Assembly (NCBI GenBank): GCA_023269085.1
Contig: JAHFML010000002.1
Span: 1,266-65,265 of the forward strand
DNA from: a bacterium
GTDB lineage: Bacteria; Patescibacteriota; Minisyncoccia; Phycocordibacterales; Phycocordibacteraceae
Length of the DNA: 64,000 nt
Direction: 5' to 3'
The notes beneath the pieces are model-generated. The model made no database searches. It was not told the DNA's origin and saw only the letters and a list, made by a program, of their open reading frames with translations. Numbering within the stretch: the first letter of the stretch is position 1; each line of letters opens with the position of its first letter. This document shows, piece after piece, positions 3,663-55,044 of the stretch. Made by a program: the position numbers and the translations under genes.

Positions 3663-4046
3663 ATGACCGAAGGCGCTCCAAAATTCGAAAACCCTCTCCA
3701 GAGTAAAGAGGCGCTCAAACGGGAGAAGATTGCATTGGCTAAAGAGCTATTTGAAAGCCGAGAGAGCTTCTCTTTCCCCGGCGTTGGTCCAGACTCTTAT
3801 GCAGAATTAAAGGCTGGTGATGGGGAAGATCCTGGTTATACGACCCCTACTGATAAAATCCTGGAACGAATGCAGAACGAGGGGATGAAGATTGTCTTAG
3901 GGAAACATCCGGAAAGTGGAAATATTTTCGTTTTGCCATTCCAAAGTGATGACATTGAGAATGATTCAATTTCCCCGCGACACTTGCTAGTCGAGGGAGT
4001 AGAGGACGAGAAATTAAAAAGGCTTATCGCTTTGAGTAAGAGCTGA
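3663..4046 (+). CDS. hypothetical protein (AT-rich islet)
   Basis: ORF track; GC clearly below flanks. Confidence 0.4.
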   Translation: MTEGAPKFENPLQSKEALKREKIALAKELFESRESFSFPGVGPDSYAELKAGDGEDPGYTTPTDKILERMQNEGMKIVLGKHPESGNIFVLPFQSDDIENDSISPRHLLVEGVEDEKLKRLIALSKS

Positions 4047-4148
4047 TTAGAAATCAAAGCAGAAGCGTCGTGACGGATATAGTAGACGACATAATAGGCT
4101 ATCGCACTCGTCACCCAAGCGATGATTAGACAGTAAGAGCCACCCTCG

Positions 4149-4391
4149 CTACTTAGCACCTCCTGAACTTTCTTTGTATAAAGAAGTCACTATTAATTTA
4201 GCTAGTTTTTGCCTCTCGTCTTTCACATCCATACACCATGCGTGACCTCTTGTTGTAATAATCGCCTCAAGATATTTCTCTAGGTCTCGGCGCGAGTCGA
4301 TGATTGGTTTTGTGCACAAATATCTTTTTGCCTCTTGATAGTCACCAACATTCATTATCTCAATCCTTGATCGCTTCGGTTTATTCGTCAA
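4149..4391 (-). CDS. hypothetical 80-aa protein; 4-nt overlap with the upstream gene suggests an operon
   Basis: ORF track; ATGA overlap with 4388..4819. Confidence 0.4.
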   Translation of the reverse strand: MTNKPKRSRIEIMNVGDYQEAKRYLCTKPIIDSRRDLEKYLEAIITTRGHAWCMDVKDERQKLAKLIVTSLYKESSGGAK

Positions 4392-4819
4392 TGGCTATGC
4401 AGTACAAAATACGGCAGTTTGTCCATCCCCACATACGTAAACATCTCATAGTTTGCACGGCGAGCCGTTTCAGAAAGCTTGTAATTCGAGAGATTCTTCT
4501 TCGGCACAAAGGGATAAAAACGTATCTCTTGTTTCTGGCTCTCTTTTTCCTTCCATTTGAAATTAAGGAAGAGCGGCGGTGTCATGTATCCAGCCTTGAG
4601 AACTTTATTCATGATTTGCCAACCGGCACCGAAAACGACCGCCTTTGGTTTGTTCCGACTGGTCTTCACCTGTGCTCGGAAAGAGCATCCCGTGCACTGC
4701 ACATCAAAGAGGGGGTAATTCGGTGGGAGTATCATGAGGGATTTCCCACAATTCGGGCAAGGGACTAAAGCAACCACTTCGAGTTCTCCCGCATCGCCAA
4801 CTGGATGGTTGTTTGCCAT
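4388..4819 (-). CDS. hypothetical zinc-ribbon protein (CPNCG...CTGC), 143 aa
   Basis: Two Cys pairs spaced like a Zn ribbon; AT-rich; no family confidently recognised. Confidence 0.45.
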   Translation of the reverse strand: MANNHPVGDAGELEVVALVPCPNCGKSLMILPPNYPLFDVQCTGCSFRAQVKTSRNKPKAVVFGAGWQIMNKVLKAGYMTPPLFLNFKWKEKESQKQEIRFYPFVPKKNLSNYKLSETARRANYEMFTYVGMDKLPYFVLHSH

Positions 4820-4936
4820 GCAGGAAGTAGATCATTTATAGATCTCGCGCGCAATGTCCTCGAGCCTTCGTTTTTCTCTCAGTAGCAAAAAGCGGCCATG
4901 TTTCGTAAAAGTTAACAATTTCTAGTAGAGATACTT

Positions 4937-5614
4937 TTATTTTAAATATAAGAGCCGATATCTTTTATCGAGAGGTTGCAGCCTTACTGTCTCTACGATG
5001 TTTCGACGACCAGCATCAAAAGTAAGCCCACGTTGAGTGAGGGTGTCTCTAGCTTGTATTTTGGTTATGATTGGATATCCATTATTCAAATCTAATTCTG
5101 GGAAATCTATCTTCGGATGACCCTTTTCCCATAAGCTAAAGGCTTTTTCTCCTTTATAAACAAACCAAATCTTCGAAAAAGAAGAATCCATGGAAGCAGC
5201 GGATCTTTTTAATAAGTCTATTGTTACTGAATCAAATTCGAAAAAAGGGAACTCTAAAAGATCTGAATGCACAATTAACCACACCTCTTGCGCGCCACTT
5301 CTATCTGTGTACTCCTTAATACGTTTTTGCTTATTTTCTATAGTTTGTCGAAGCCAAATATGAGGTTCATTGGGTATGATTATTTCATAGGCTTTGCCAT
5401 GCTTTAAGCGTTTGATGGTCTTAGACCAAGACATTGCTCGTTCCATACTCAGATGACAGCAGTCTGCAGCTATTTTCTTACCGTCTATAGCGAACACCCA
5501 ATCAGGTTTATCAACAACATCAAGGTCGTCGATTACGCTAAACAAATTTTCTTTCAGAACAGATTTGACGGCATCTATGGCCAGTTGCTCGTTTTTAGTC
5601 CTTGTCTTGCGCAT
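4937..5614 (-). CDS. hypothetical protein 225 aa (AT-rich islet)
   Basis: ORF track. Confidence 0.45.
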   Translation of the reverse strand: MRKTRTKNEQLAIDAVKSVLKENLFSVIDDLDVVDKPDWVFAIDGKKIAADCCHLSMERAMSWSKTIKRLKHGKAYEIIIPNEPHIWLRQTIENKQKRIKEYTDRSGAQEVWLIVHSDLLEFPFFEFDSVTIDLLKRSAASMDSSFSKIWFVYKGEKAFSLWEKGHPKIDFPELDLNNGYPIITKIQARDTLTQRGLTFDAGRRNIVETVRLQPLDKRYRLLYLK

Positions 5615-5707
5615 GTTATTTATTTCTTTTTACGATACAGATCTGTTTTGATCTTGATGCGTAAGTCACATGGAGTAGTCCTATGTAAGCATTTGTTTGC
5701 AATAAAT

Positions 5708-6010
5708 TTACTTCTTATTTTTAAAATTCGACACGTTTTTCATTTCATTTACTTGTTCAATCAAATTATCTGCGAGAGTTTGATGAACTGACTCATAGAA
5801 TTTATCTCCAGGCTTACTTCTGTCTAATTCGTCTGCTTTTATCATAAGCCAATGAAGCCACTCCTTAGGAACCTCAACCATTTTCTGGGAATTTTTCCAG
5901 TCCTGGTAAATTAAAAATATAACACTTACTAATATCAAAATATTTAGAAGATTCATGAGTATATGTATACTACCGCTGAGCAGTATTTCTGTAAACGATT
6001 CAAACGACAT
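5708..6010 (-). CDS. small membrane-anchored hypothetical protein
   Basis: ORF track; one TM helix. Confidence 0.35.
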   Translation of the reverse strand: MSFESFTEILLSGSIHILMNLLNILILVSVIFLIYQDWKNSQKMVEVPKEWLHWLMIKADELDRSKPGDKFYESVHQTLADNLIEQVNEMKNVSNFKNKK

Positions 6011-6031
6011 GTCTCGTGTGGGTAGCCTTAT

Positions 6032-6283
6032 TCAAATTGATTTGCTCGCGACTAAAGCAAACTTCTTCTCTCGCCGCCAGCCCTTAAGCTCGGTCTCGCG
6101 CTGGCGCGCTTCGCGGAGCGTCGAGAAAGTCTCGTGATACAGGAGTGTCACAGGTCGACGGGTTTTAGTATAATGCGCGCCCCATTTTGAATCGTTATGT
6201 TGCTTCATCCTCCTCTCGAGATCATTGGTGCATCCGACATAGAGAGACTGGTCAGCGCATTCGAGGATGTAGGTGAAATACAT
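6032..6283 (-). CDS. GIY-YIG nuclease family protein (83 aa)
   Basis: YILECADQSLYVGCTNDLERRMKQHN matches the GIY-YIG motif block. Confidence 0.8.
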   Translation of the reverse strand: MYFTYILECADQSLYVGCTNDLERRMKQHNDSKWGAHYTKTRRPVTLLYHETFSTLREARQRETELKGWRREKKFALVASKSI

Positions 6284-6413
6284 AGTGGTATCATACCGCC
6301 CTTTCTCGAAGACTCGTCAGGGTCTTCGTCGCATTGAGTTTGAGAGTACAAGCAAATAACCACACGCGTGATTAGCGGGGGCCGAAGGCTCTGAGGAGCG
6401 GAGCGACGAAGAG

Positions 6414-8439: not shown

Positions 8440-9166
8440 GCAGGCGAAGGCGAAGGTGCTCGCCCTGAAGTATGACGGCGCCCCGAGCGATGCCTATGCG
8501 GCCGACTGCGCGCGCATCGACGCGAGCGAGCCGTGGGAGTATGTGCTGGGGGCAGCCGACTTCCTCGACTGCACGATTGATCTCTCGGCACGGCCGATGG
8601 TCCCGCGCGATGAGACGGCGCATTGGGTCGCGCGCGTGATTGAAGAATGGAAGCATGAGCCTGCAGTGCAGGCACTCGACCTCTATGCCGGCTCGGGCAA
8701 TATCGGCATCGCGCTCGCCAAGCACCTGCCCACCGCAAACGTCACCTTCAACGAGCTGGATGAAAAATTGTTGCCACAAATAGCGAAGTCGCTTGAGCTA
8801 AACAGCATCGACGCGTCGCGCACGACCCTCATCGCGGGCGACAGTTTAGAAAAAATAGAAGGGAAGTTCGACCTCATCTGCGCGAACCCGCCGTATGTCG
8901 ACCCCGCGAGCGAGAACGAGATGGACCCCGAGATGCGGTATGAGCCGCACATCGCCTTCTTCGGTTCTCTTGACGGCATGGGGCATCACCGCGAGCTCAT
9001 ACGGGAAGGGAAAAGATATCTCACGCCACGCGGCGTGCTCTATGGCGAGTTCGACATGACGCAAGCAGATGAGATTAAAAAATTGCTCGCCGCGAGCGAT
9101 TGGCACTATGAGATATGGGACGACCCCTACGGCCACCCAGGGGTCATGGTGCTTCATGCAAGTTGA
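8423..9166 (+). CDS. prmC: release factor glutamine N5-methyltransferase
   Basis: NPPY catalytic motif, SAM-binding LDLYAGSGNIG. Confidence 0.8.
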   Translation: MYLTNEQAKAKVLALKYDGAPSDAYAADCARIDASEPWEYVLGAADFLDCTIDLSARPMVPRDETAHWVARVIEEWKHEPAVQALDLYAGSGNIGIALAKHLPTANVTFNELDEKLLPQIAKSLELNSIDASRTTLIAGDSLEKIEGKFDLICANPPYVDPASENEMDPEMRYEPHIAFFGSLDGMGHHRELIREGKRYLTPRGVLYGEFDMTQADEIKKLLAASDWHYEIWDDPYGHPGVMVLHAS

Positions 9167-9190
9167 GTAAGGTTCGACCTTACTCACTTG
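9159..9190. repeat. palindromic element family 2 copy (caagttGAGTAAGGTTCGACCTTACTCacttg) overlapping the prmC stop codon
   Basis: Near-perfect 32-nt palindrome; same core as copies at 46146, 46609 and 46874. Confidence 0.7.
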
Positions 9191-9571: not shown

Positions 9572-10285
9572 CTATTTCACCCCGATGGAAGTAAGGAAGG
9601 TGGCGAGCTCGTCGCCCTCGATAGCCCGCCACTTGCCCGACTTCAAATCTTCGAGACGGATGTTGAGGATGCGGGTACGCTCGAGCTCGACGACGACATT
9701 GTGGAGCGCGGCGACCATGCGGCGGATCTGGTGCTTCTTGCCCTCGGTGAGGGTGATATTGAATGACCGCGGCCCCGTCTTGCGCACGAGGCATGGCCGT
9801 GTCATATAGCCCTCGATGTCGACGCCGCCCTCCATATACTTCTTGAAGCTCTCGCGAAGCGGCGTCTCCACGCGCACGCGATATTCCTTGTCATGAGCGT
9901 AGTCGGGGTTCAAGAGGCGATCGGTCACACGGCCGTCGTTGGTGAGGATCATGAGCCCGCTTGAATCCTTGTCGAGCCGCCCGATGGGGAAGACCTCGGA
10001 TAGCTCGGGCGCGAGCTTCACGCTCTGCTTCACATCCTTCTCGCCCTCTTGCGGCGAGTGCGTGATGACGCCGATGGGCTTGTTATAGGCGTAGTAGAGG
10101 AGCCTCTTGGGCGACGCCTTGCCGACCACCTCGACCTTGTCGGCCGCAAGCACCTTGTCGCCGAGCGCCGCAACGCGGCCATTCACGCGCACCGCGCCAC
10201 GCGCGATGATCTCGTCGGCGCCGCGCCGCGTGGCGAGCCCTTGGTGGGCGAGATACTTGTTGAGGCGCATCGGCCATGTGTCCAT
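9572..10285 (-). CDS. rluB: RluB/RsuA-family 23S rRNA pseudouridine synthase (true start MDTWPMRLNKY at 10285)
   Basis: S4 domain at N-terminus, catalytic GRLDKDSSGLMILTNDG motif. The longer ORF upstream of 10285 is antisense to the ABC-F gene and was rejected. Confidence 0.8.
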   Translation of the reverse strand: MDTWPMRLNKYLAHQGLATRRGADEIIARGAVRVNGRVAALGDKVLAADKVEVVGKASPKRLLYYAYNKPIGVITHSPQEGEKDVKQSVKLAPELSEVFPIGRLDKDSSGLMILTNDGRVTDRLLNPDYAHDKEYRVRVETPLRESFKKYMEGGVDIEGYMTRPCLVRKTGPRSFNITLTEGKKHQIRRMVAALHNVVVELERTRILNIRLEDLKSGKWRAIEGDELATFLTSIGVK

Positions 10286-10339: not shown

Positions 10340-11803
10340 ATGGCACGCGAAGAAAGTGTTATCCATTTTGAAGAAGTCTCGTTTGAATACGGGCACAACA
10401 AGCCTATTCTCGACGAGGTCGATTTCACCCTGCGCCGTGGGATGAAGATGGCGGTCATGGGCCAGAATGGCGCGGGGAAGTCGACCCTCTTCGCGCTCAT
10501 GACGGGCGCACTCACGCCAGAGAGCGGCGAGATCAACCGCTCGCACGGGATGAAGGTGGCGACCGCGGCGCAGGTGATCCCGCGCGAGAAGATGGCGCTC
10601 ACGGTGCGCGACTTCTTCTCCTCCTATTTCGATACAAAGGTGTATGACATCGACCCGAAGATAGACGCCGTGCTCGAGGTGGTCAATCTCGTCGGGCACG
10701 AGAAGTTGCACGACCGGCTCGTGCAGAGCTTCTCGGGCGGGCAACAGGCACGGCTCCTCCTCGCCTCGGCTTTGATCCAAGACCCTGACCTCCTCCTCCT
10801 CGACGAGCCGACCAACAATCTTGACACCTCCGGCATCGCGCATCTCACGAAGTTCCTCGTCGACTACGACAAGACCGTCGTCGTTATCTCGCATGATGCC
10901 GAATTCTTAAACGCTTTCACCACGGGCGTGCTCTATCTCGATGTCTTCACGCGGAAGGTCGAGCAGTATCCGGGCAACTATACCGATGTAGAGCGCGATA
11001 TCCTGATCCGTATTGAAAAAGAAAATCGCAAGAACGCCCAGCTCGCAAAGAAGATTCAGGATAATAAAGACAAAGCGAACTTCTTTGCGCAGAAGGGCGG
11101 CAAGATGCGTCTCGTCGCCAAGAAGATGCGCACCGAGGTTGAAGAGATGGAGGAGGCCAAGGTCGATGTGCGGAAGGAGGACAAAGTCATTCGGCCGTTC
11201 ATTATTCCCGCGCAAGCGGAGCTGAGCGGCACGGTTTTTTCTCTCACCTCCTACACCGTGCTCGGTGCGAAGGGGAAGCCGATCGAGAAGAAGGCGAATA
11301 TCAATTTGCGCAAGAATAATCACCTGCTCCTGCGCGGGCCGAACGGCATCGGCAAGAGCACCCTGCTCGAAGCGATCGCTCGTGGCACTGCCCAAGGCGC
11401 GACGCTCACCGAAGGCGTGAAGGTCGGCTACTATCGCCAAGACTTCTCGACGCTCGACTTCGGCGCGACCGTCTTTGATGCACTTATGAAGGTGATGGGC
11501 CAGCCGGACGAGAAGCGCTTACGCTCGGTCGCGGCGAGCTTCCTCATCACGGGCGACGTGATCGGCACCAAGATCGGGAGCCTTTCAGAAGGGCAGAAGG
11601 GGCTCGTCGCCTTCGCCTCCTTGGTGCTCGAGCGGCCGGGGCTCCTTATCCTCGACGAGCCGACCAACCATATCAACTTCCGCCACTTGCCCGTCATCGC
11701 GAAGGCGCTTTCCGAATTCGAAGGCGCGATGATTCTGGTCTCCCACGTCCCCGAATTCGTCTCCCAGATCCGCATCGACGACATTTTGGATTTGGAGAAG
11801 TAA
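10340..11803 (+). CDS. ABC-F family ATPase (two tandem ABC domains, no TMD)
   Basis: Two Walker A (GQNGAGKST, GPNGIGKST), two signatures (FSGGQQ, LSEGQKG), charged linker between the domains. Confidence 0.8.
   Translation: MAREESVIHFEEVSFEYGHNKPILDEVDFTLRRGMKMAVMGQNGAGKSTLFALMTGALTPESGEINRSHGMKVATAAQVIPREKMALTVRDFFSSYFDTKVYDIDPKIDAVLEVVNLVGHEKLHDRLVQSFSGGQQARLLLASALIQDPDLLLLDEPTNNLDTSGIAHLTKFLVDYDKTVVVISHDAEFLNAFTTGVLYLDVFTRKVEQYPGNYTDVERDILIRIEKENRKNAQLAKKIQDNKDKANFFAQKGGKMRLVAKKMRTEVEEMEEAKVDVRKEDKVIRPFIIPAQAELSGTVFSLTSYTVLGAKGKPIEKKANINLRKNNHLLLRGPNGIGKSTLLEAIARGTAQGATLTEGVKVGYYRQDFSTLDFGATVFDALMKVMGQPDEKRLRSVAASFLITGDVIGTKIGSLSEGQKGLVAFASLVLERPGLLILDEPTNHINFRHLPVIAKALSEFEGAMILVSHVPEFVSQIRIDDILDLEK
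11763..11803 (+). repeat. native 3' end of the ABC-F gene (...SQIRIDDILDLEK*) = repeat copy A
   Basis: 40 nt identical to 12942-12981; degenerate copy at 13503-13546. Confidence 0.85.
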
Positions 11804-11828
11804 ATTTCTCTATTAAATTACTATAATC

Positions 11829-12377
11829 ATGTCTGTAAAAATAACCTATTTCGTTCACGGTACTACGACAGACAACGAGAAGAATATTTCTTCGGGCTGG
11901 AAGGATGTTGAATTGTCTGAACTTGGCGTACAGCAATCTGTCGATTTGAAGAAGGAAACGGAAGACAAGGAATTCGATGTTGTTTTTTGCTCTGATCTAC
12001 AGCGTGCTCACAACTCAGCAAAACTCACATGGGAAGGCATCTATCAGATTATCCCGGATATGCGTCTCCGTGAATGCAATTATGGTGCACTGAATGGTGC
12101 CTCGTCAGATATTGTCGAGCCAATGCAGGAAGATGAGAGTGTCACAAAACCCTTTCCTGAAGGTGAAAGCTATGAGGACGTAAAGACTCGCGTTGCAGAT
12201 TTCCTCGTGTTTCTAAAGCAGAACTACGATGGTAAACATATCGCTATCGTTGCACATAAAGCACCACAACTCTCACTCGAAGTGCTTCTTAATGGTAAAA
12301 CGTGGAAACAGGCACTTGCCGAAGATTGGCGGAAAGAGAAGATGTGGCTCCCTGGTTGGGAGTATGAACTAAGATAG
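11829..12377 (+). CDS. histidine phosphatase (phosphoglycerate mutase-like) family protein
   Basis: N-terminal YFVHGTT catalytic His motif, HKAP second His region; lower-GC cassette. Confidence 0.6.
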   Translation: MSVKITYFVHGTTTDNEKNISSGWKDVELSELGVQQSVDLKKETEDKEFDVVFCSDLQRAHNSAKLTWEGIYQIIPDMRLRECNYGALNGASSDIVEPMQEDESVTKPFPEGESYEDVKTRVADFLVFLKQNYDGKHIAIVAHKAPQLSLEVLLNGKTWKQALAEDWRKEKMWLPGWEYELR

Positions 12378-12395
12378 TTGTGGTATAATCGTGAT

Positions 12396-12623
12396 ATGAA
12401 AAGCATCATCCAATTTCAAATCTCTGAAAGCGATGGGGGGTATGTTGCCGAGGGCATCGGCGTGCCGATTGTGACGCAAGGCGATACCCTTGATGAACTT
12501 ACCGCGAATATTCGCGAAGCGGTCGAGTTGTATGTCGAGGACGAAGATCTCGTTGAGCTTGGTCTTGTAAAATCTCCGTCGGTGCTGGTCAATTTCGAAC
12601 TTCCGGCGCTCGCACATGCCTAA
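12396..12623 (+). CDS. hicB: HicB-family antitoxin (UPF0150)
   Basis: Small acidic protein immediately upstream of, and overlapping, the HicA-like gene. Confidence 0.65.
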   Translation: MKSIIQFQISESDGGYVAEGIGVPIVTQGDTLDELTANIREAVELYVEDEDLVELGLVKSPSVLVNFELPALAHA

Positions 12624-12858
12624 ACCGAGAAGATTATCAGGAGCAGATATTATAAAGATCTTTGAGGAGTTTGGTTTTACTATCAAAAATCAGCGGGGAA
12701 GCCATATAAAACTCACGCGCAGTTGTCTCGGCACTACGCAAGCGTTACTCGTCTCGAATCACAAAGAGCTAAAGACGGGTGCAATCGTCGGTATATTCAA
12801 ACAAGCATTGCAATACATCCCAGAACCTGATCTTCGCAGTCATTTCTATTCAGAATGA
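12616..12858 (+). CDS. hicA: HicA-family mRNA interferase toxin
   Basis: IIKIFEEFGFTIKNQRGSHIKL matches the YcfA/HicA motif (GSH). Confidence 0.7.
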   Translation: MPKPRRLSGADIIKIFEEFGFTIKNQRGSHIKLTRSCLGTTQALLVSNHKELKTGAIVGIFKQALQYIPEPDLRSHFYSE

Positions 12859-12875
12859 AATTGCGCTTTGTGTGC

Positions 12876-12932
12876 AACCGCGTACCAAATCGCTCCTATA
12901 GGAGCGATTTGGTACGCGCATTGCGGACATAA
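12876..12932. repeat. imperfect ~55-bp palindrome (core cgcgtaccaaatcgctcc-tat-aggagcgatttggtacgcg) at the cassette boundary
   Basis: Perfect 18-bp arms plus imperfect outer arms, no U-tract; sits just before repeat copy B. Confidence 0.6.
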
Positions 12933-12940
12933 GTCTGTCG

Positions 12941-12982
12941 CCCAGATCCGCATCGACGACATTTTGGATTTGGAGAAGTAGA
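12941..12982 (+). repeat. duplicate copy B of the ABC-F 3' end (encodes ...QIRIDDILDLEK*)
   Basis: 40/40 nt identical to 11764-11803; stop is TAG instead of TAA. Confidence 0.85.
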
Positions 12983-13025
12983 GTCTCCATGTCGACCCAA
13001 AGGTAAGCGCTTGCTTAGTATGAAG

Positions 13026-13409
13026 CTATTCGCCAGAAGGAATATTCGATAAGCTATCTCGAATTCTTTTTTGGAAGACGGGAGTGTTCAATTTCTCAAG
13101 GAGAAGCCGCATGTCTTCTTTATTGAGAGGAAGGGTTTCGTCAAGTGGCTTGAGAAGCTCGTCGAGTTTTTCTAAAATCGGTGTCACAGTCTCTTTATCC
13201 ATTTCTTTTAAATCACTTCCAGCAAGGCCGAGCCGCTCAAGAAGTTTCCAAGCACCCACTCGATTTTCGTCTGCAGTGCGCGAAACCATTTCAACATATG
13301 TACGAATCAATCCAGTCGTTTGACTAACACGCTCGTCGAGTGATTTCTCAACATTCATTTCGATCCCTCCTTTGTTCGCTGGCTTAGAATCAAGATTTTC
13401 AATTCCCAT
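13026..13409 (-). CDS. hypothetical protein 127 aa (second cassette)
   Basis: ORF track; AT-rich; sigma70-like promoter (TTGATT...TAGTAT) upstream on the minus strand. Confidence 0.4.
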   Translation of the reverse strand: MGIENLDSKPANKGGIEMNVEKSLDERVSQTTGLIRTYVEMVSRTADENRVGAWKLLERLGLAGSDLKEMDKETVTPILEKLDELLKPLDETLPLNKEDMRLLLEKLNTPVFQKRIRDSLSNIPSGE

Positions 13410-13502
13410 ATAATTTGTTTATTTCTTGTAAGACACGAATCCGCACATATACTAGCATAATCCTAACCGTTCCTAATCAAAAAGAACTCGATCGGGGAAC
13501 AA

Positions 13503-13546
13503 TCTCCCAAATCCGCATCGACGACATTCTTGATTTGGAGAAGTAA
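13503..13546 (+). repeat. degenerate copy C of the ABC-F 3' end (ISQIRIDDILDLEK*)
   Basis: 3 mismatches vs copy A over 44 nt; retains reading frame and stop. Confidence 0.75.
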
Positions 13547-13578: not shown

Positions 13579-14955
13579 ATGAACCACACCACTTTCGAGC
13601 ACGAGGTTGAAGAAGCCTTTGAAGCGCCAGCGAAGGTGCTCGCAGGGGGCGTCGAGTTTGTCGAGCGAGAAGAGCAGAAGCTCGCCGAGGAGCCGATCGT
13701 CAAGGGTGCAGGGAGATATTGGAAGACGCTCGGGCCCGGCCTCACCACCGGCGCGGCCGACGACGACCCCTCGGGCATCGCGACCTACTCGCAGGCGGGC
13801 GCGAGCTACGGGCTCCAGCTCATCTGGCTCTCGCTCTTCACCTACCCATTCATGGCGACGGTGCAGGAGATGTGCGCGCGCATCGGCATCGTGTCGGGGC
13901 AAGGGCTCGCCGCGAATATCAAGAAGCACTACCCGGCGTGGGCGCTCTATGGCGCGGTCGGCCTCCTCTTCTTCGCGAATACGCTCAACATCGCCGCCGA
14001 CCTGAACGCGATGGCCGCCGCCGCACAATTGCTCGCGCCGAATATCGGCCTCGATCTCCTCGTCATCTTCTTCGCGCTCGTGAGCCTCGCCCTCCAGATA
14101 TTCATCCCGTATGCGCGCTATGCGAATTATTTGAAATATCTCACCTTCTCGCTCTTCTCGTATGCCATCGTTGCGCTCTTGGTACATCTCGACTGGGGCG
14201 CAGTCATCTATCACACCCTCGTCCCCTCGCTCTCCTTCTCGGCCGATCAGCTCTTCCTCGTGTGCGCGGTGCTCGGGACGACCATCTCGCCCTACCTCTT
14301 CTTCTGGCAATCGTCGCAGGAGGTCGAAGAGGATGTGAAGCGCGGCGAAACCTCGGTCGCGAGTCGTCAGGCACACGCGACGCCGCACGCGCTCCGCCGG
14401 ATGCGCGTCGATGTGTGGAGCGGTATGGCATTCTCCAATCTCGTCTCTTTCTTCATCTTCGCCGCGTGCGCGGGGACGCTCCATGCGCATGGCATCACCA
14501 ACATCGCGACGGCCGACCAGGCCGCGCTCGCTCTCAAACCTTTCGGCGATTTCGCCTTTCTCCTCTTCGCGCTCGGCATCCTCGGGACCGGGCTTCTCGC
14601 GATACCGGTCTTCGCGGGATCGACCGCGTATGCCTTCTCTGAGAGCTTCGGCTGGAAGGAAGGGTTGTATAGGAAGTTGAAGCAGGCCTACGCATTCTAC
14701 GGTGTCATCATCGTTTCGACCTTGCTCGGCATCATCGCGGTCTTCGCGCATCTCGACCCTATCAAGGGGCTCATTTATGCCGCGGTCGCGAATGGCGTCA
14801 TCGCGCCGATCCTCCTCGTCTTCGTCGTGCGGCTCTCGGGCAACAAACGCATCATGGGCGCTCATGCGAGTCGCCCACTCGCCGCCGCTCTCGGCTGGGC
14901 GACGATCCTCATCATGGCCGTCTCCGGTGTCGCCGCGCTGGTGACGCTGGGTTGA
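13579..14955 (+). CDS. mntH: NRAMP-family divalent metal (Mn2+/Fe2+) transporter
   Basis: GPGLTTGAADDDPSGIATYSQAG consensus, 11-12 TM helices. Confidence 0.8.
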   Translation: MNHTTFEHEVEEAFEAPAKVLAGGVEFVEREEQKLAEEPIVKGAGRYWKTLGPGLTTGAADDDPSGIATYSQAGASYGLQLIWLSLFTYPFMATVQEMCARIGIVSGQGLAANIKKHYPAWALYGAVGLLFFANTLNIAADLNAMAAAAQLLAPNIGLDLLVIFFALVSLALQIFIPYARYANYLKYLTFSLFSYAIVALLVHLDWGAVIYHTLVPSLSFSADQLFLVCAVLGTTISPYLFFWQSSQEVEEDVKRGETSVASRQAHATPHALRRMRVDVWSGMAFSNLVSFFIFAACAGTLHAHGITNIATADQAALALKPFGDFAFLLFALGILGTGLLAIPVFAGSTAYAFSESFGWKEGLYRKLKQAYAFYGVIIVSTLLGIIAVFAHLDPIKGLIYAAVANGVIAPILLVFVVRLSGNKRIMGAHASRPLAAALGWATILIMAVSGVAALVTLG

Positions 14956-14974
14956 TGCAACACCATGATTGAAA

Positions 14975-15003
14975 CAAAAAATCCGCCAGAGGCGGATTTT
15001 TTG
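14975..15003. terminator. bidirectional rho-independent terminator (aaaaaATCCGCCagaGGCGGATttttt)
   Basis: Perfect 7-bp GC stem flanked by A-run and T-run. Confidence 0.8.
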
Positions 15004-15088
15004 TGGGCGTTTGGCTACAGCGACTTCTCTCCGAGACAAACAAAACGCGCCGGCAAGCCGGCGCGGTGAAGCAGATGGAAGTGAAGGA

Positions 15089-15658
15089 TCAGTCGACGTA
15101 ATCCACACCGGAGTTAGCATCGCGCCACGCGAGATAATTTCCGTGAGCGATGGCGATACACGCGTCGGCGACCATGCTGGAGAGCATTCGGTCGTAATGT
15201 GATGCCAGACCCGAACAGGCCACGACGATGCCGTCTCGTTTGACGCCACCCCAATAGGGCGTGTCGCCCCGCAAGAGCAAATGCGGCACTGAGTTCGGGC
15301 CACCAAAGTTCCGGTCGTCCCAGAGCTGTAATGCTTTGCATTCGGCCAAGTCTTGGTAAAGGGCTTGCTTCGGCACAAGGGCGTCGCCGTTGGTGTATCG
15401 TGCAAACACGAACGGCACGATCTCGTGCGCAGGATAGGAACCCATCTTTTTCATTTCGGGCACGAGCATCAGTACGTGCATGTCAGGATTCCCCAGCGAG
15501 AACGTATCGAACACGAACTTCGCAATGTCCGCCATGAGGCGGCAGACAGTGGCTTGTTCAAGAAAAGCAGGGGTGATGGATTCGGGCATGGAAGCCTCCC
15601 TCAAGTTTTGGAACGGATTGTCCGGTGAGAGTAAAGCACGAGGTTTGTGGTGCGTCAA
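15089..15658 (-). CDS. hypothetical protein 189 aa (cassette inserted after mntH)
   Basis: ORF track; own terminator hairpin cgcgccggc-aag-gccggcgcg at 15043-15063. Confidence 0.45.
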   Translation of the reverse strand: MTHHKPRALLSPDNPFQNLREASMPESITPAFLEQATVCRLMADIAKFVFDTFSLGNPDMHVLMLVPEMKKMGSYPAHEIVPFVFARYTNGDALVPKQALYQDLAECKALQLWDDRNFGGPNSVPHLLLRGDTPYWGGVKRDGIVVACSGLASHYDRMLSSMVADACIAIAHGNYLAWRDANSGVDYVD

Positions 15659-15660
15659 TC

Positions 15661-15712
15661 GGCGTAGCGATCATCATGGCCATCTCCGGCGTCGCCGCGC
15701 TCGCGACGCTGG
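15661..15712 (+). repeat. diverged duplicate of the mntH 3' end (encodes ...IIMAISGVAALATLG*, cf. native ...ILIMAVSGVAALVTLG*)
   Basis: About 85% nt identity to 14899-14955, frame and stop retained. Confidence 0.7.
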
Positions 15713-15735
15713 GGTGAGAGCTGATTGCGGCTACT

Positions 15736-16680
15736 TTAATCGTGGTAAATAAATGTCGGGGTCATTGTGCCATCTGGATTTATTACGCCAACAGCAACGA
15801 CAATATCTCCCGTATGCAAGTCGGAAAAGGTAATAGATTTCCCGCGCGCGTCTTGTATCTGAGTAGTTGATGCCGTAAAGACTCCAAGGAGCTCTTTGTT
15901 TTCAGTGAGTATATAGATACCCTCCACTGGTTTAGTTACTCTCGTCTGTATTGTCCCTATAGCCGATTTCGTGGTGGCTGTTGATATTTGTCGTGATGGA
16001 GATGCTATATTCTGTTGCGATGCTATCGTTGTGGGTGCTGGTGCTCCTATCGAGGACTGTGGTATCGGAGCGGACACATGAGGAACAAGGAAGATGATGT
16101 AGAAGATCGCGCTGATAGCGAAAGTTATGAGCATAACCTGAAGCAAGAAGAATGCGCCCACTAGGATAACAAATATCTGCTCAAAGATATTTAGGTGTAT
16201 ATCCCAACCACGCTTCTTTGTCATATGGTAGACGAAGTAGTATGCAAGAGGGGGTGAGAAGAAACAAACAGCGGTGAGCAAGACACTGCCTTTTCCTATC
16301 ATGAAAAGGGTCAATGCCCAGACGCCTCTCATGATTGCGATGCCGAAGAGGATGCCAATGGGGAATAAGAAGAATATTATAAATGGTATGTGAAGTTTTC
16401 CGATGAAACCAATCAGCATCAATGGCAGCATGTTCTTCCAAAAGATGCCTCGAAACTCTCCCCATGCAAGTTGGCGAGTGACCGATTCGGGTCTCTGGGG
16501 TGATGCAATAGGAGATGAAATATTCATTGTTCCAGCAGTACCGCTCTCGAGAGAGGTGAATGCTTCGTCGATTGTGGCTTGAGTGTGACCAGATTTCAGC
16601 AAGGTCTCAATTATTTGCTCTTTTGTTTGACCCTGATTGAGCTCGTTCCTGATAAAATTTAAGAGTCCTAAATCGGCCAT
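15736..16680 (-). CDS. polytopic membrane protein, hypothetical (lower GC)
   Basis: ORF track; 5-6 TM helices. Confidence 0.5.
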   Translation of the reverse strand: MADLGLLNFIRNELNQGQTKEQIIETLLKSGHTQATIDEAFTSLESGTAGTMNISSPIASPQRPESVTRQLAWGEFRGIFWKNMLPLMLIGFIGKLHIPFIIFFLFPIGILFGIAIMRGVWALTLFMIGKGSVLLTAVCFFSPPLAYYFVYHMTKKRGWDIHLNIFEQIFVILVGAFFLLQVMLITFAISAIFYIIFLVPHVSAPIPQSSIGAPAPTTIASQQNIASPSRQISTATTKSAIGTIQTRVTKPVEGIYILTENKELLGVFTASTTQIQDARGKSITFSDLHTGDIVVAVGVINPDGTMTPTFIYHD

Positions 16681-16800
16681 GAGAGTATGGTTATTGTTGG
16701 TTAATTACTTAATAAGTATATCACGAGCAAACGGGGTATCTTGCATTCGTGGCTGTTTATTATATAGTAGGAGCACCAGCCCACGGGCTATTTTTATTTT

Positions 16801-22437: not shown

Positions 22438-24645
22438 TTATTCCAAATGCGTCTCGGTGCCGAAGGAGAGGGCACGCCGAGCCAGCACAGGATACTTTTT
22501 TAATTCAGGGTCAGCCGCGACGAGGGCCGCGGCCTCGGCGCGCGCCGCTTCGACGAGCTTCAAATTTTTCAACGCCTCCATCGCGAGGTCAGAGATGCCC
22601 CACTGCCGACCGCCGGCGAGCTCGCCCGCGCCGCGGAGCGCGAGGTCGTATTCGGCGAGCTCGAAGCCGTCTTTGGCGGTGGTGAGTGCCTTCATGCGCT
22701 CCTTGGTCGCAGGGCCGAAGGACTCGGGGAGCGCGAAGCAATAGGCTTGATTGTTGGAGCGAATAACGCGGCCACGGAGCTGATGGAGCTGGGCGAGACC
22801 GAATCGCTCGGCGCCCTCGATGAGAATCACCGTCGCGTTCGGCACGTTGACGCCGACCTCGACCACCGAGGTCGCGACGAGGATGTTGATCGCGCCTTGT
22901 TCAAATCTCTTCATCACCGCCTCTTTTTCAGCCGGACGCATCTTGCTGTGCAGAATGTCGATGACGGCATTGGGGAATATTTCTTTTTGTAAACGCGCGG
23001 CCTCGGCCTTGACCGACTTGGCTTGGAGCGCGAGCTCTCGAGCAGGGTCGGGCTCGTCAATGCGCGGACAGATGACATACGCCTGCCGCCCTTTCGCGAG
23101 TTCACTCCGCACCCGCGTGTAGGCGAGCTCGCGCTTCTCGGGGCCGAGCACCTCGGTAATAATCGGCTTGCGGCCCGAAGGCATCTGGTCGAGGAGGGTG
23201 AGGTCGAGGTCGCCATAGAGCGTGAGCGCGAGCGTACGCGGTATCGGCGTCGCCGTCATCGAGAGGAGGTGCGGCGCGACGACGCCCTTACTCGCGAGCT
23301 TCTGTCGGTGCATCGTGCCGAAGCGATGCTGTTCGTCGATGATAGCGTAGGCGAAATATTTGAAGGCAAGCGACTTCTCGACGAGCGCATGCGTGCCGAT
23401 GACAATCGGTATTGTCCCCTCGGCGACGCGCTTGCGGAATGCGGGCTTGCTGATTTTCGCCGACTCCTCGTAGCGGACGCGAGAGGGGAAGACGCGGCAC
23501 TCGCTCCCCGTGATGAGGCCGATAGATATCGGGTGCTTTTTGAAATACGAAACAAAGGTCGAGAAATGCTGTTTGGCGAGGATCTCGGTCGGGCAGAGGT
23601 AAGCGACCTGGAGCGTCCCCGCGATGCGACCCCGAGGTACCGACGTTGCGACGAGGTAGGCGGTCGCCGCGGCGACCGCGGTCTTCCCGCTCCCCACATC
23701 GCCCTCGAGGAGTCGGAGCATCGGGTACTTTTTTTCAAAGTCAGCGACGATAGCGTCGATAGCGTGCCGTTGCGCCGCGGTCGCGGGGAAAGGGAATGAA
23801 GCTATGAAGTCAGCGAGCGACTTTTTATCGACCGAGACCGGTAGTGCCTCTTCGCGCAGGTGTTCTTGGCGGCGCTTCTGCATCACGATTTGGAGCGCGA
23901 AGATCTCTTCGAAGGCGAAGCGCTTGCGCGCCGCCTCCTTGTCCGCGAGCTTCTTCGGCGCGTGGACGAAGACGAGCGCGGTGACGAGGGAGGGGAGCTT
24001 GTAGCGTGCGAGAATGTCGGCAGGTATCGGGTCTTCGATAGTCTCATGCACGCCAGCTTCAAAGGCTTTGCGCACCGCGTGCATGAGCCAGAGCGATGAG
24101 ATGCCCATGCTCTCGGGGTACATCGGGTACAACTCAGCCTCGCGGGTGGACACTAGGTGTCCACCCGCAGACGGGTGGACACCTAGTGTCCACCCGTCTG
24201 GATTGAAAAGCGAAGTGTGTACCGCCTCGGGGTCAAGACCAGCCTTCGTGATCTCGGGGTTCGCGAGATACGCCTTCGCGCCCTCGCCGGCGATGCGCCC
24301 GCTTACCTTCACCTGCATGCCGTCGTGGAGCGACTTCGCGATATACGGCTGAGAGAACCACATCATCTTTATCTTCCCCGAATTGTCCTCGAGCCACGCC
24401 TCGGCGAGTGGGCGGCGACTCTTCCACGCCTTGCGCACCTCCGGCTTCCGCACGGTGCCATAGAGTGTCACCTCGCCACCCGCCACCGCACCCGCTATCG
24501 TGCCGGTCGGCCCCGCGTTCTCGTAGCGCGAAGGGAAGTGATAGAGCAAGTCGCGCACGGTCTTGATCCCGAGCTTCGCGAGCGCGCGCTTCTGCTCCAC
24601 CTTCATCCGCGGGAAGTGCTTCTCTAGGGGGTCTTGTGGATTCAC
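22438..24645 (-). CDS. recG: ATP-dependent DNA helicase RecG (carries an in-frame palindromic insertion)
   Basis: Wedge domain, helicase motifs GDVGSGKT, DEQHRFG, TATPIPRT. Confidence 0.9.
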   Translation of the reverse strand: MNPQDPLEKHFPRMKVEQKRALAKLGIKTVRDLLYHFPSRYENAGPTGTIAGAVAGGEVTLYGTVRKPEVRKAWKSRRPLAEAWLEDNSGKIKMMWFSQPYIAKSLHDGMQVKVSGRIAGEGAKAYLANPEITKAGLDPEAVHTSLFNPDGWTLGVHPSAGGHLVSTREAELYPMYPESMGISSLWLMHAVRKAFEAGVHETIEDPIPADILARYKLPSLVTALVFVHAPKKLADKEAARKRFAFEEIFALQIVMQKRRQEHLREEALPVSVDKKSLADFIASFPFPATAAQRHAIDAIVADFEKKYPMLRLLEGDVGSGKTAVAAATAYLVATSVPRGRIAGTLQVAYLCPTEILAKQHFSTFVSYFKKHPISIGLITGSECRVFPSRVRYEESAKISKPAFRKRVAEGTIPIVIGTHALVEKSLAFKYFAYAIIDEQHRFGTMHRQKLASKGVVAPHLLSMTATPIPRTLALTLYGDLDLTLLDQMPSGRKPIITEVLGPEKRELAYTRVRSELAKGRQAYVICPRIDEPDPARELALQAKSVKAEAARLQKEIFPNAVIDILHSKMRPAEKEAVMKRFEQGAINILVATSVVEVGVNVPNATVILIEGAERFGLAQLHQLRGRVIRSNNQAYCFALPESFGPATKERMKALTTAKDGFELAEYDLALRGAGELAGGRQWGISDLAMEALKNLKLVEAARAEAAALVAADPELKKYPVLARRALSFGTETHLE
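24144..24195. repeat. palindromic element family 1, two tandem units (GGGTGGACACtagGTGTCCACCC gcagac GGGTGGACACctaGTGTCCACCC) in frame inside recG
   Basis: Each unit is a perfect 10-3-10 palindrome; encodes GWTLGVHPSAGGHLVSTRE. Confidence 0.85.
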
Positions 24646-40359: not shown

Positions 40360-40381
40360 ATATGCGGTATACTACGAACAT

Positions 40382-42229
40382 ATGGACCCAGAACTGAAAC
40401 AAGAGACGATACTGTCGTTTAAGAGTCGCATATTTGTGGCGGCGGTGACTATCGCGGGAGTGATAATAGTTAGCACGATTGCATACATAGTTTTTATGTC
40501 GAGATCATCAACATCTGCCGACAATCTGCCATCTACAGTTTCAAATAATGTTGCGTCGAGCACCGAAGATAATTTCGCAATCACTCAAGATAAGCTGGTG
40601 GCGATACAGGCTGAGATGGGGACCACGACACCTGTTGCATTAGGAGATGCATACAATATTTTTGTGCAAATCGACAATTTTTCGAATGAAACGCTATATC
40701 ACGGCGTGACGTACCACGAAGATGGGATTATAACGGCCGGACCATATAGCGGTTATCGCCGTATACTAGCAAGTCTCGAACCAGATGGTCCGGTGGGCGT
40801 GAACGATTATGTAACTTTTGCAACAAAAGACTACCGCACGTTCATTTTGCATGCACCGACAAAAGGGCGAGTGCCAAACCCGAAGTTATTCAACACAAAT
40901 GTTGTTACAAAGGCGAATGCCTTCCCAACAAATTTCCCTGAGAGTATTGTCGCGAATAAAGATTTTGTCTTATATCGTGGAGATATTGTAACGGCGACCA
41001 GCTCAGCTCTTGGTCCAGAACTTACAAGTACGAGTCCTGGGTTGCGGTTCTACACGAATCCGGGGGACTATACACACAGCGACTTCGAGGCATATAAATT
41101 CGTTACTGGCGATACCAGTATCGTGGCGCGTGATGTCGAGAATGTTCGTTTCGTATATCACTTGGCTTTTTCTGACGCAAAGAAAACCGATTGGATGGTG
41201 GGGGATATCGGAATAAAACTTCCAGCAGAATCCGGTTTATATTCAAGTTATGGCAAAGCGCTTCCGCGGGGGTGCGGCGGCGGGGATACTGGCCAGAGTT
41301 ATGTGCTTACAAATAGTGCCAATAAAGAGGTACAAAGCAGTCCGATCGCGGAGGCGCACGGCGTAGACTTGTACCGCTTCGCAAACATAGACAATCCGTT
41401 CGTCAAAGCAGAATACGATACTAAATCGTCTCAAATAAACGCCTACTTACAACAGGATCCAAATAGCAGTAGTTGGCTCACCGCAGTGCCGGACTATACT
41501 GAGTATGCAAAGAAAACCCCGATTCTTTTGTTCAGAGATCCATGGAGCAGGTGGGTAGCGGTCGGTGAAATACAGTATCAATTGCCAGGAGGATGCGGGA
41601 AGCCGGTTATCTATCTGTATCCAGAAAAACCTACCAACGTATCAGTGAAATTTATGAATGTTCCGAAATTCAGCGTCGATATTCCAACCTATACGGATGA
41701 ATGGCATGTCCTTGCCGATAAAAATGGTAACTTGCACGATCTCCAACCAAATAAGACAGACTGCGCGAGGATTGACTTAACGGCCTTTGGTTCTGATTAC
41801 GCAAAACAGTCTTGTCTTGCAGGTGTGTATCCCTATCTCTATTGGGCTGGCGAAGCCGCGGGAACGTATCCCTCTCGAGAGGGCGGTTGGGTGATAAACA
41901 AGGAGGATATCGGAATATTCCTTGAATCGAAACTTCGCGAAATTGGTTTAAATGAGCAAGAACAACAAGACATGCTTTCGTTCTGGGTGCCAACGCTTAA
42001 GAAAGCAGAATCGCCTTACTACTCAATCTCGTTCTTTACGACGAAGCAGATGAATCATTTTATCCCGATGAGAGTAACGCCGTCTCCTAACAGCGCGTTG
42101 CGCATCTTCCTCGATTGGAAGCCACTCATGGCGCTACCGAGCAGTCTCCCAACACCACAAGTATTTGTTCCTTTTGAACGGAAAGGTTTTACGCTCGTCG
42201 AATGGGGCGGGCTCGAATACAATAAATAA
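40382..42229 (+). CDS. membrane-anchored extracellular hypothetical protein 615 aa (AT-rich islet)
   Basis: N-terminal TM, long Ser/Thr/Asn-rich ectodomain. Confidence 0.45.
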   Translation: MDPELKQETILSFKSRIFVAAVTIAGVIIVSTIAYIVFMSRSSTSADNLPSTVSNNVASSTEDNFAITQDKLVAIQAEMGTTTPVALGDAYNIFVQIDNFSNETLYHGVTYHEDGIITAGPYSGYRRILASLEPDGPVGVNDYVTFATKDYRTFILHAPTKGRVPNPKLFNTNVVTKANAFPTNFPESIVANKDFVLYRGDIVTATSSALGPELTSTSPGLRFYTNPGDYTHSDFEAYKFVTGDTSIVARDVENVRFVYHLAFSDAKKTDWMVGDIGIKLPAESGLYSSYGKALPRGCGGGDTGQSYVLTNSANKEVQSSPIAEAHGVDLYRFANIDNPFVKAEYDTKSSQINAYLQQDPNSSSWLTAVPDYTEYAKKTPILLFRDPWSRWVAVGEIQYQLPGGCGKPVIYLYPEKPTNVSVKFMNVPKFSVDIPTYTDEWHVLADKNGNLHDLQPNKTDCARIDLTAFGSDYAKQSCLAGVYPYLYWAGEAAGTYPSREGGWVINKEDIGIFLESKLREIGLNEQEQQDMLSFWVPTLKKAESPYYSISFFTTKQMNHFIPMRVTPSPNSALRIFLDWKPLMALPSSLPTPQVFVPFERKGFTLVEWGGLEYNK

Positions 42230-42230
42230 T

Positions 42231-42530
42231 ATGGACCCAGAACTGAAACAAGAGATAGCCGAGATACATGCGCTCGAGAAGGACAATCACCAAATGCTCC
42301 GCGCTATCCGCCGCGACCAGTGGTTCGGCTTCATCGGGCGGCTCATCATCTGGGCAATAGTGCTTGCGCTCCCGCTCTACTTCTATCAGCAGTATATAGA
42401 GCCCATCATCACGAAGATTGAGGGCGTATCAACGACAACGACCGCTACTATTAGTAAGTTTTCTCTACCGACGCTCCCATCTTCCGTTCAGGTACAAAAA
42501 CTGCTAAACTCTTATAAGATGGCGCCCTAG
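42231..42530 (+). CDS. small membrane protein sharing an identical first 25 nt (MDPELKQE) with the preceding gene
   Basis: atggacccagaactgaaacaagaga is identical at 40382 and 42231. Confidence 0.4.
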   Translation: MDPELKQEIAEIHALEKDNHQMLRAIRRDQWFGFIGRLIIWAIVLALPLYFYQQYIEPIITKIEGVSTTTTATISKFSLPTLPSSVQVQKLLNSYKMAP

Positions 42531-46099: not shown

Positions 46100-46145
46100 T
46101 ATTCAAAATAATACCGCAAATACGCGGATCAGGCGAACACACATT

Positions 46146-46175
46146 GAGTAAGGTCGAACCTCACTCAACTTACTC
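46146..46175. repeat. palindromic element family 2 copy (GAGTAAGGTCGAACCTcactcaaCTTACTC) at the tsaD 3' end
   Basis: Same arms and core as the 9159 copy. Confidence 0.7.
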
Positions 46176-52251: not shown

Positions 52252-52338
52252 GGAGAGGTGGCAGAGTGGTCGAATGCACTGGTTTCGAAAACCAGCAGGG
52301 GCGAAAGCTCCTCGTGGGTTCAAATCCCACCCTCTCCG
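52252..52338 (+). tRNA. tRNA-Ser (anticodon CGA)
   Basis: Acceptor GGAGAGG/CCTCTCC, anticodon loop TTCGAAA, long variable arm, T-loop GGTTCAAATCC. Confidence 0.85.
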
Positions 52339-53858: not shown

Positions 53859-53882
53859 ATTGCTTTTAGATACGAAACAAGA

Positions 53883-54013
53883 GACAAATCCGCCCAGTTC
53901 GCCACGCCCGTCCCGTCCCAATTCGTCGCGGAGCGACGGCATCTTTTGCCCACTCCCGCGCCTTCGGCGCGGGCTTCTTCCCACCTTTCGGATTCGGAAG
54001 TTTCTTTCTGCGG
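53883..54013. repeat. IR1-R: inverted partner of IR1-L, 25 bp upstream of the recombinase start codon
   Basis: 131/131 identity as reverse complement. An extra 17-nt match (cttgtttcgtatctaaaa) lies just outside. Confidence 0.9.
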
Positions 54014-54254: not shown

Positions 54255-54347
54255 AGCAATTGAAAAAATCCATAAATAATGCTATCCTTGTTTTGTGAGC
54301 AAAGAAAGTAACGACTCATATTTCTATACTATCAAAAGTAGCATACT

Positions 54348-54545: not shown

Positions 54546-54555
54546 ATTTACAAAT

Positions 54556-55041: not shown

Positions 55042-55044
55042 GGA

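Follow-up and report, generated by a model that had tools for sequence, protein, structure and literature searches.

The closest described counterparts of the structure reported here are integrase-mediated genomic islands, their integrase-less derivatives, the cis-mobilizable elements (CIMEs), and the remnants of tycheposons. The attachment (att) sites of tycheposons are ~40 nt long, repeated integrations push older elements along, and the remnants are flanked by partial tRNA genes. Here, we describe a locus in a stretch of 64,000 nt from a bacterium of the Patescibacteriota (GenBank assembly GCA_023269085.1, contig JAHFML010000002.1, positions 1,266 to 65,265), referred to as the window throughout this paper, in which the 3' terminus of mntH, the gene of a divalent-metal transporter, is duplicated around a small insert carrying one gene, p166. 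With islands, CIMEs and tycheposon remnants the locus shares direct repeats that are tens of nt long, with one copy completing an intact target gene, as well as tandem stacking with repeated partial targets and small accessory cargo. It differs from islands and CIMEs in that no integrase was found in cis, in the vicinity or at the corresponding sites of relatives, that the targets are protein-gene termini of unrelated sequence, that the cassettes are 0.5-1.8 kb long and mostly hold a single gene, and that the repeat edge is a stop or start codon. Tests for the integrase and the recurrent att use that define the island class found neither; these and all later statements on integrases and motifs cover the 64-kb window, the cassettes and the homologous loci of relatives. 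What sets the locus apart is that inserts without a recombinase, mostly of a single gene, lie between copies of a gene terminus in a genome of the candidate phyla radiation (CPR).

Campbell-type single-crossover integration of non-replicating circular DNA yields an insert that lies between two stretches of homology and carries no recombinase gene. The layout at mntH is the same, with the outer repeat edge corresponding to the end of the homology between donor and recipient. Campbell integration is, however, a laboratory and plasmid phenomenon that normally involves hundreds of bp of homology, and here it would require circles of natural origin and efficiency on 22-47 nt. The minimal mobile elements of Neisseria are variable cassettes that lie between conserved genes and are exchanged via transformation and homologous recombination. 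They resemble the present case in that alternative cargo is found between the same conserved genes in related lineages and that no mobility genes are carried, and the organisms of this comparison are probably naturally competent. Minimal mobile elements are exchanged by double-crossover replacement, which leaves no duplicated gene terminus, whereas the terminus is duplicated here.

Hybrid genes containing mobile open reading frames (mORFs) were reported in fungal mitochondria, in atp6 of Allomyces and in atp6, atp9, cox2 and nad3 of Glomus, where the order is gene core, inserted C-terminus, open reading frame (ORF), and displaced native C-terminus (PMC3630166). The geometry is that of the mntH locus: the mORF element supplies a spare gene end and the host gene stays intact (PMC3630166). 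The inserted ORF of these hybrids encodes a LAGLIDADG or GIY-YIG homing endonuclease that drives mobility, whereas the cargo here has no endonuclease domain; the two copies are 64-81% identical in the hybrids, clearly foreign versus native, and 89-100% identical here, where both look native. The microcin H47 island of Escherichia coli is reported to be small and recombinase-less, to have imperfect direct repeats, and to be deleted by recombination between them (PMC3191183, PMC5426353). It has in common with the present locus the small size, the short direct repeats and the lack of its own site-specific recombinase, but its repeats are not termini of flanking genes and the system is not known to occur at several sites per genome.

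The features of the mntH locus are the following.

13579-14955, plus strand: mntH, target gene, encoding an NRAMP divalent-metal transporter of 458 aa (Pfam PF01566, E = 4.5e-83; conserved synteny)
14909-14955, plus strand: proximal repeat copy, the final 15 codons and stop codon of intact mntH (alignment, blastn-short)
14974-15004, no strand assigned: hairpin, stem of 14 bp, preceded by an A-run and followed by a T-run (fold and sequence)
15046-15065, minus strand: terminator of the cargo gene, eight G-C pairs followed by TTTTGTTTGT (fold; placed after the p166 stop codon)
15089-15589, minus strand: cargo gene p166, 166 aa, an uncharacterised Patescibacteria family (gene call, 95 homologues)
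15590-15670, minus strand: 5' region of p166, with a GAGGGAGG ribosome-binding site and a possible TTGACG-N17-TTTACT promoter (read from the sequence)
15671-15717, plus strand: distal copy of the mntH terminus, non-coding, in-frame ORF shorter than 40 aa (alignment)
15736-16680, minus strand: gene of a 314-aa membrane protein between the distal copy and typA, GC 0.45 (absent from all relatives)

The two copies of the 47-nt mntH terminus form a direct repeat and agree without gaps at 42 of 47 positions (89%); both are in frame and end in TGA (...LIMAVSGVAALVTLG and ...IIMAISGVAALATLG). Their Smith-Waterman score of 69 lies ~26 standard deviations above the scores of 1000 shuffled tails (17.4 ± 2.0, maximum 28). 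Self-comparison of the window revealed only three families of close direct repeats, of which the mntH repeat is one (blastn-short, E = 2e-7). Nothing of the homology continues past the stop codon, and a weak gapped likeness, possibly present 12-18 nt farther upstream of the core, is not significant (p = 0.3). The original prediction, which was made from the sequence of the window, had placed the duplicate at 15661-15712 with an identity of about 85%; the repeat itself proved real, while the coordinates were 5-10 nt off and the identity is higher than was given.

The window belongs to an uncultured, groundwater-type CPR bacterium of the Paceibacterota/Kaiserbacteria type. Its mntH product is 63-75% identical to proteins encoded by metagenome-assembled genomes (MAGs) of such Patescibacteria, and the gene order ABC-F, mntH, typA is common to the window and ~20 such MAGs. 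Core genes of the window have a GC content of 58-62% and several islands one of 37-46%; mntH itself has a native GC of 0.62, native synteny, and an ancestral promoter and spacer upstream. For comparison, ~150 other mntH loci were collected from GTDB species representatives and Joint Genome Institute (JGI) metagenomes, together with 20 syntenic ABC-F loci of relatives. Both copies of the mntH terminus show lineage-specific states (SGVAAL..TLG), and the distal copy has some ancestral-like codons, e.g., GCG ACG. One copy had been designated a spare supplied with the insert, an assignment for which the comparison gave no basis: the two copies are equally distant from the sister-lineage protein P0097 and from 25-30 relatives. 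The duplicate is recent and lineage-specific, not a fragment of an ancient paralogue, because the other mntH loci and the junctions of relatives do not have it.

The distal copy was also considered as an RNA. Two of its five substitutions (T19C and T33C; 15689-15709 compared with 14927-14947) replace G-U wobble pairs by G-C pairs in a hairpin of 10-12 bp; folded as RNA, the distal copy has a z-score of -2.6 and the native copy one of -1.6. Co-option of the distal copy as a structure at the 3' end of the convergent 314-aa gene is conceivable, although the effect as DNA is not significant. The 314-aa gene itself is a further accessory insertion without a repeat of its own.

Between the copies, the hairpin at 14974-15004 has the form of a bidirectional intrinsic terminator, and termination could occur in both directions because the stem is flanked by an A-run and a T-run. 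The p166 gene was called on the opposite strand from ATG 15589, with the GAGGGAGG Shine-Dalgarno sequence 6 nt ahead of it, whereas the ORF that opens at TTG 15658 and would encode 189 aa is over-extended. Accordingly, the two hairpins and a real minus-strand gene were correctly predicted, but the length of its product is 166 and not 189 aa, and the gene does not abut the duplicate, as had been claimed: since the true start is ATG 15589, a gap of 81 nt separates them. The TTGACG-N17-TTTACT promoter is putative and is absent from the output of a consensus scan. With its terminators and its own ribosome-binding site, the cargo is a complete expression unit.

The p166 protein has 95 homologues of 164-175 aa at 49% identity or less, in which Met1 is nearly invariant in the alignment, and the family is confined to Patescibacteria among the homologues found. 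No match was detected in Pfam, PHROG, NCBIfam or PADLOC, and there was no sequence match to any solved structure. An AlphaFold (AF2) model had a predicted local distance difference test (pLDDT) score of 93.7, and Foldseek matched it to 5cx7 and 2a2l with probabilities of 0.95 and 0.89 and template modelling (TM) scores of 0.41-0.51; the predicted fold thus weakly resembles DUF336/PduO-C haem-binding proteins. The nearest homologues (46-49% identity) lie upstream of infC-rpmI-rplT, another lies beside bacA, and none adjoins mntH in ~160 mntH loci. Because its homologues sit by infC or bacA, none sits by mntH, and no mobility domain is present, p166 is an ordinary accessory or chromosomal gene that was relocated, and not a mobility gene.

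Scans with Pfam, PHROG, NCBIfam and PADLOC detected no recombinase, transposase or endonuclease in any cassette, and there is no tyrosine-recombinase motif in the window. The sole recombinase of the window is a large serine recombinase encoded 37 kb from the mntH insertion. Neither the cargo nor the termini were found on phage, plasmid or viral records. At eight cassette boundaries no shared motif or terminal inverted repeats were found (best pairwise score 23 versus a null maximum of 26), the repeats folded as DNA no better than shuffled sequences into hairpins or attC-like structures (z -0.2 to -0.6), and no microhomology pattern was evident at the junctions. An integron cassette was rejected for lack of an attC-like fold, a common cassette-end motif and an integrase. 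A homing-endonuclease hybrid was rejected as well, p166 having no Pfam or PHROG endonuclease match and a predicted fold that is weakly DUF336-like.

The same geometry is found directly upstream of mntH, at the ABC-F gene.

11759-11803, plus strand: ABC-F terminus copy 1, part of the intact gene (alignment)
11804-12936, plus strand: cassette A, histidine phosphatase and HicB/HicA genes followed by a 40-nt perfect palindrome, GC 0.447
12937-12981, plus strand: ABC-F terminus copy 2, 43/45 identical to copy 1, stop codon TAG
12982-13501, minus strand: cassette B, a 127-aa gene of unknown function, GC 0.421
13502-13546, plus strand: ABC-F terminus copy 3, 41/45, followed by an ancestral 32-nt spacer with promoter and by mntH

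The 45-nt terminus of the ABC-F gene, including the stop codon, thus occurs three times around two cassettes. All copies end at the stop codon, their inner boundary is the same within 1 nt, and they are closer to each other than to any of 20 relatives. The 32-nt spacer with a TATAGT box after copy 3 matches the "empty" ABC-F/mntH junction of a relative (L004). The 40-nt perfect palindrome (12879-12918) lies directly after hicA and 18 nt before copy 2. A perfect 27-nt palindrome abuts the distal mntH copy of contig L041 (3142-3168; see below) in a similar way; both palindromes may simply be terminators of the cargo.

A mirror case, in which the 5' end of a gene is repeated, was found farther downstream.

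40380-40406, plus strand: 5' repeat copy 1, AT, ATG and eight codons (MDPELKQE), fused in frame to a 615-aa gene
40382-42229, plus strand: 615-aa cargo gene, low GC of 0.464 (family comparison)
42229-42255, plus strand: 5' repeat copy 2, where the gene of a conserved 99-aa membrane protein (42231-42530) truly starts

The two 27-nt copies are perfectly identical and bracket the 615-aa gene. The orthologues of the 99-aa membrane protein all start with MDPE[LIT], whereas no other member of the 615-aa family among the matches listed begins with MDPE; an 85%-identical orthologue from a sister species (P0336) begins with MDTELKQE. For this reason, the MDPELKQE fusion on the 615-aa protein is taken as a by-product of the insertion. 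The same bracket is present in the sister-species contig L169 (84% identical overall), where the copies differ at 2-3 positions; the insertion is therefore old, and repeat identity is no clock. It follows that dating the mntH event as older than the ABC-F cassettes from its greater divergence, as had been proposed, is unsafe, since a perfect repeat here predates a species split (84% nucleotide identity). The 99-aa gene is annotated publicly as 78 aa (P0217), and 160 homologues show a 93-99-aa form starting with MDPELKQE; the 5'-end repeat probably misled the gene caller.

In other genomes such duplications are sporadic. The mntH terminus is duplicated in one of the ~150 other loci, on a distant AT-rich CPR contig (L041), where a repeat of 103 nt (~93% identity, 96% over an 81-nt BLAST core), with copies 1200 nt apart and ending at the stop codon, brackets the gene of a 295-aa secreted protein. 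With this sole other duplication among the loci checked, the alternative that the duplicate in the window is an ancient paralogue pseudogene was not borne out. None of the 20 syntenic ABC-F loci has a duplicated terminus. Taken together, the mntH terminus is duplicated in 2 of ~150 loci (47 versus 103 nt) and the ABC-F terminus in 1/21, i.e., there is no recurrent att use across genomes, and the absence of repeats from ~150 mntH and 20 ABC-F loci indicates sporadic events rather than an att site in wide use.

A screen of 1.53 Mb of CPR sequence for terminus repeats gave two further cases. In the first (L038), a 22-nt perfect repeat, which ends with the stop codon of a gene on the minus strand, brackets a 576-aa gene. 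In the second (L013, 7436-7600), codons 2-14 of typA are duplicated (39 nt, 37/39 identical, 120 nt apart) around a gene-less 81-nt insert; an ORF that begins with the upstream copy comes to a dead end after 35 codons, and ATGACC marks the renewed start of the real typA. The case occupies, in another species, the same mntH/typA junction as the insertion in the window. The 3' repeats all end exactly at the stop codon (ABC-F copies 2 and 3, mntH in the window and in L041, gene X in L038), and the 5' repeats start 2 nt before the ATG (gene at 42231) or at codon 2 (typA in L013). Length and sequence differ from site to site (22, 27, 39, 45, 47 and 103 nt). The recurrence of the geometry anticipated by the original prediction therefore held, with the triplicate ABC-F tail of identical boundaries, the 5' mirror case and the examples from other genomes. 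A coherent, self-targeting class of cassettes with a shared core motif at target or cassette ends, in contrast, was not recovered, and the cargo is not a dedicated mobile gene, given the p166 homologues by infC or bacA. No recombinase lies in or near the cassettes.

The junctions themselves vary among relatives. In a first set of seven species representatives, mntH and typA are separated by 48-192 nt, which hold the typA promoter and a conserved leader hairpin. Other relatives have a short-chain dehydrogenase (SDR) gene between mntH and typA, or a pirin gene between ABC-F and mntH, without repeats or recombinases at these junctions; these are conserved genes, and their interpretation as mobile elements was rejected. 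The closest lineage (mntH 93% identical) has entirely different small genes between ABC-F and mntH, which indicates turnover of this junction within the genus; its contig breaks 4 nt past the mntH stop codon. The region upstream of typA (16730-16800 in the window) is conserved in all relatives, with a TTGTATATT-like box, a short G+C hairpin, and TTTTTATTT abutting the ATG, and may be a leader or attenuator, or a shared mntH terminator.

Two repeats of other kinds were met in the comparison loci. In L096 (Kaiserbacteria-like), a 643-aa gene closely follows ABC-F, and its 3' end (3845-3971) is repeated over 127 nt at a distance of 465 nt (4310-4436). The downstream copy has A at 11/12 mismatches, which is the variable repeat/template repeat (VR/TR) signature of a diversity-generating retroelement (DGR); no reverse-transcriptase motif was found in the 7.9-kb locus. 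In L050, a tRNA 3' end (TCAAATCCCTCCCTCTCCGCCAAAA) at 9719-9743 is repeated 180 nt downstream (9899-9923), a classical footprint of an integrative element.

Based on these results, we tentatively put first the explanation that a close relative's DNA recombined at the conserved terminus of the gene and that the event was resolved as an insertion. We infer its course, its donor and the nature of the incoming copy as follows. The incoming DNA would have carried its own last ~47 nt of mntH and then different downstream DNA, namely the cargo, a self-contained unit of ~715 bp with two terminators, p166, and the ribosome-binding site and promoter region of p166. At the mntH 3' end the event would have resolved as an insertion and not as a replacement, duplicating the terminus, either by a single crossover with a circularised fragment (Campbell type, "ends-in") or by one-ended homologous invasion followed by end joining. 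The product would read gene body, terminus, cargo, terminus, with one copy completing mntH and the other left as a non-coding relic. Host recombination and repair would do the work; host machinery is proposed because no recombinase is carried. The repeat would end at a stop or start codon because the homology between donor and recipient ends there, and such edges would not be expected of a staggered-cut duplication. The repeats with codon edges, the site-specific lengths without a motif, and the absence of a recombinase are best fitted by recombination at a homologous terminus. Since the mntH copies share lineage-specific states and the ABC-F copies are closest to each other, the sequences point to a donor within the same genus.

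Several points weigh against this explanation. The inner boundary shared within 1 nt by ABC-F copies 2 and 3 is unlike what independent random fragments would give and looks site-specific. Recombination is inefficient on 22-47 nt of imperfect homology. The other cassettes are low in GC (0.42-0.46) while the flanking termini look native, so that two steps would be needed, namely entry of the cargo into a close relative and a later transfer from there. Three sites were counted in these 64 kb versus two or three in 1.47 Mb of other CPR sequence, a density that hints at a lineage-specific factor, and none was found. Neither an empty site nor a circular junction was seen, nor a donor arrangement in which p166 follows mntH, and the databases may lack the donor.

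A site-specific recombinase acting in trans is possible, if on the whole unlikely. The gene termini would then be att sites, with attP restoring the gene, and the cassettes would be integrase-less satellites or decayed remnants gathered by tandem accretion, as in CIMEs or tycheposon remnants. Direct repeats of ~25-50 nt over a gene 3' end are the classical footprint of such integration, and native-looking termini around low-GC cargo agree with it; above all, the identical boundaries of the three ABC-F copies and the density of the structures in this one genome favour such an enzyme. The enzyme itself is the difficulty: the cassettes carry no integrase, the 64 kb contain no tyrosine-recombinase motif, and the only recombinase is of the serine type, 37 kb off, a family that is not known to leave long direct repeats. 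Moreover, a genome of ~1 Mb would have to hold three specificities, one for each of the unrelated att sequences, and no shared arm or core motif was found. No integrase-bearing element occurs among the ~150 mntH or 20 ABC-F loci, no viral contig has the termini, and the two mntH cases differ in repeat length, 47 versus 103 nt.

Duplicative repair, which is rather unlikely, would make both copies the recipient's own. A long duplication of target-site type, or a template switch (microhomology-mediated or break-induced), would have captured foreign DNA at a break close to the gene end, with the distal copy drifting afterwards. The variation of repeat length among sites and the perfect identity of the 27-nt repeat at 40380/42229 are in line with it. 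So are the native-looking termini around foreign cargo and the gene-less insert in the 39-nt typA duplication of L013, which indicates that terminal duplications can arise without cargo; these two favour repair from the recipient's sequence most directly. It leaves unexplained, however, the exact stop- and start-codon edges and the shared ABC-F inner boundary, and the junctions have no evident microhomology.

The relic of an allelic replacement, in which a foreign mntH with terminator and p166 overwrote the resident gene and left its last ~50 nt as a stub, is very improbable. The distal copy is indeed non-coding, with ancestral-like codons and the possible upstream likeness mentioned above, but this extension is not significant, mntH has its native GC, synteny and ancestral promoter and spacer, and the ABC-F and 5' sites cannot be accounted for in this way. 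A DGR pair, a transposon target duplication or an assembly artefact is hardly credible: a genuine DGR-like pair does exist in the relative L096, with A at 11/12 mismatches, but A occurs in the distal copy at only 1/5 mismatches for mntH and at 2/4 and 0/2 for ABC-F, and the ORFs at 11.7-18.6 kb include no reverse transcriptase; there are no inverted ends and no transposase, and repeats of 22-103 nt are not of fixed length; and a collapsed repeat is impossible because the copies differ from one another, and the identical structure is present in two independent metagenome assemblies from ENA, ERZ27279563 and ERZ27297709.

CPR bacteria have genomes of ~1 Mb, few recognisable mobile elements, and variable gene content. 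Extending recombination at a homologous terminus to a general system would be speculative and is rather doubtful: conserved CPR gene termini would serve as portable attachment segments, through which single-gene cassettes are gained, stacked, popped out and passed among close relatives by host recombination and natural competence. If so, this would be a recombinase-free analogue of the integron or island systems and would explain how accessory genes are gained in tiny, element-poor genomes. Should genes enter anchored on termini of 20-100 nt, a duplicated terminus ending at a stop or start codon would be a signature of recent gene gain in MAGs, and recombination of one copy with the other would offer a way of losing the cassette. 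Annotators should then beware of short "pseudogene" stubs and of fusions at the N-terminus (MDPELKQE in the case of the 615-aa protein), which would be by-products of insertion. Were an integrase acting in trans the cause, this signature would instead point to the att sites of that enzyme.

Further features were observed elsewhere in the window. The large serine recombinase gene (52320-53984, minus strand; PHROG integrase, E = 2e-77) follows a tRNA-Ser(cga) gene in the region 52252-56265 and lies between 131-nt perfect inverted repeats (52336-52466 / 53883-54013). Two adjoining low-GC ORFs (GC 0.37) lie between 245-nt perfect inverted repeats (54010-54254 / 56021-56265). Two paired invertible segments, an integrated element and a palindromic misassembly are all conceivable for this region. 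A low-GC island (0.41) at 4050-6300 adjoins tRNA-Gln; no repeats were detected flanking it. Within it, a 143-aa ORF (4388-4819, minus strand) matches the PADLOC model of a type II methyl-directed restriction enzyme (E = 1e-6), and an 83-aa GIY-YIG protein is encoded at 6032-6283 (minus strand). Finally, two families of short G+C-rich palindromic repeats, of 26 nt (24143-24196, 46306-46331) and ~24 nt (9164-9187, 46145-46171, 46609-46661), lie between genes and resemble repetitive extragenic palindromic (REP) elements or terminators.

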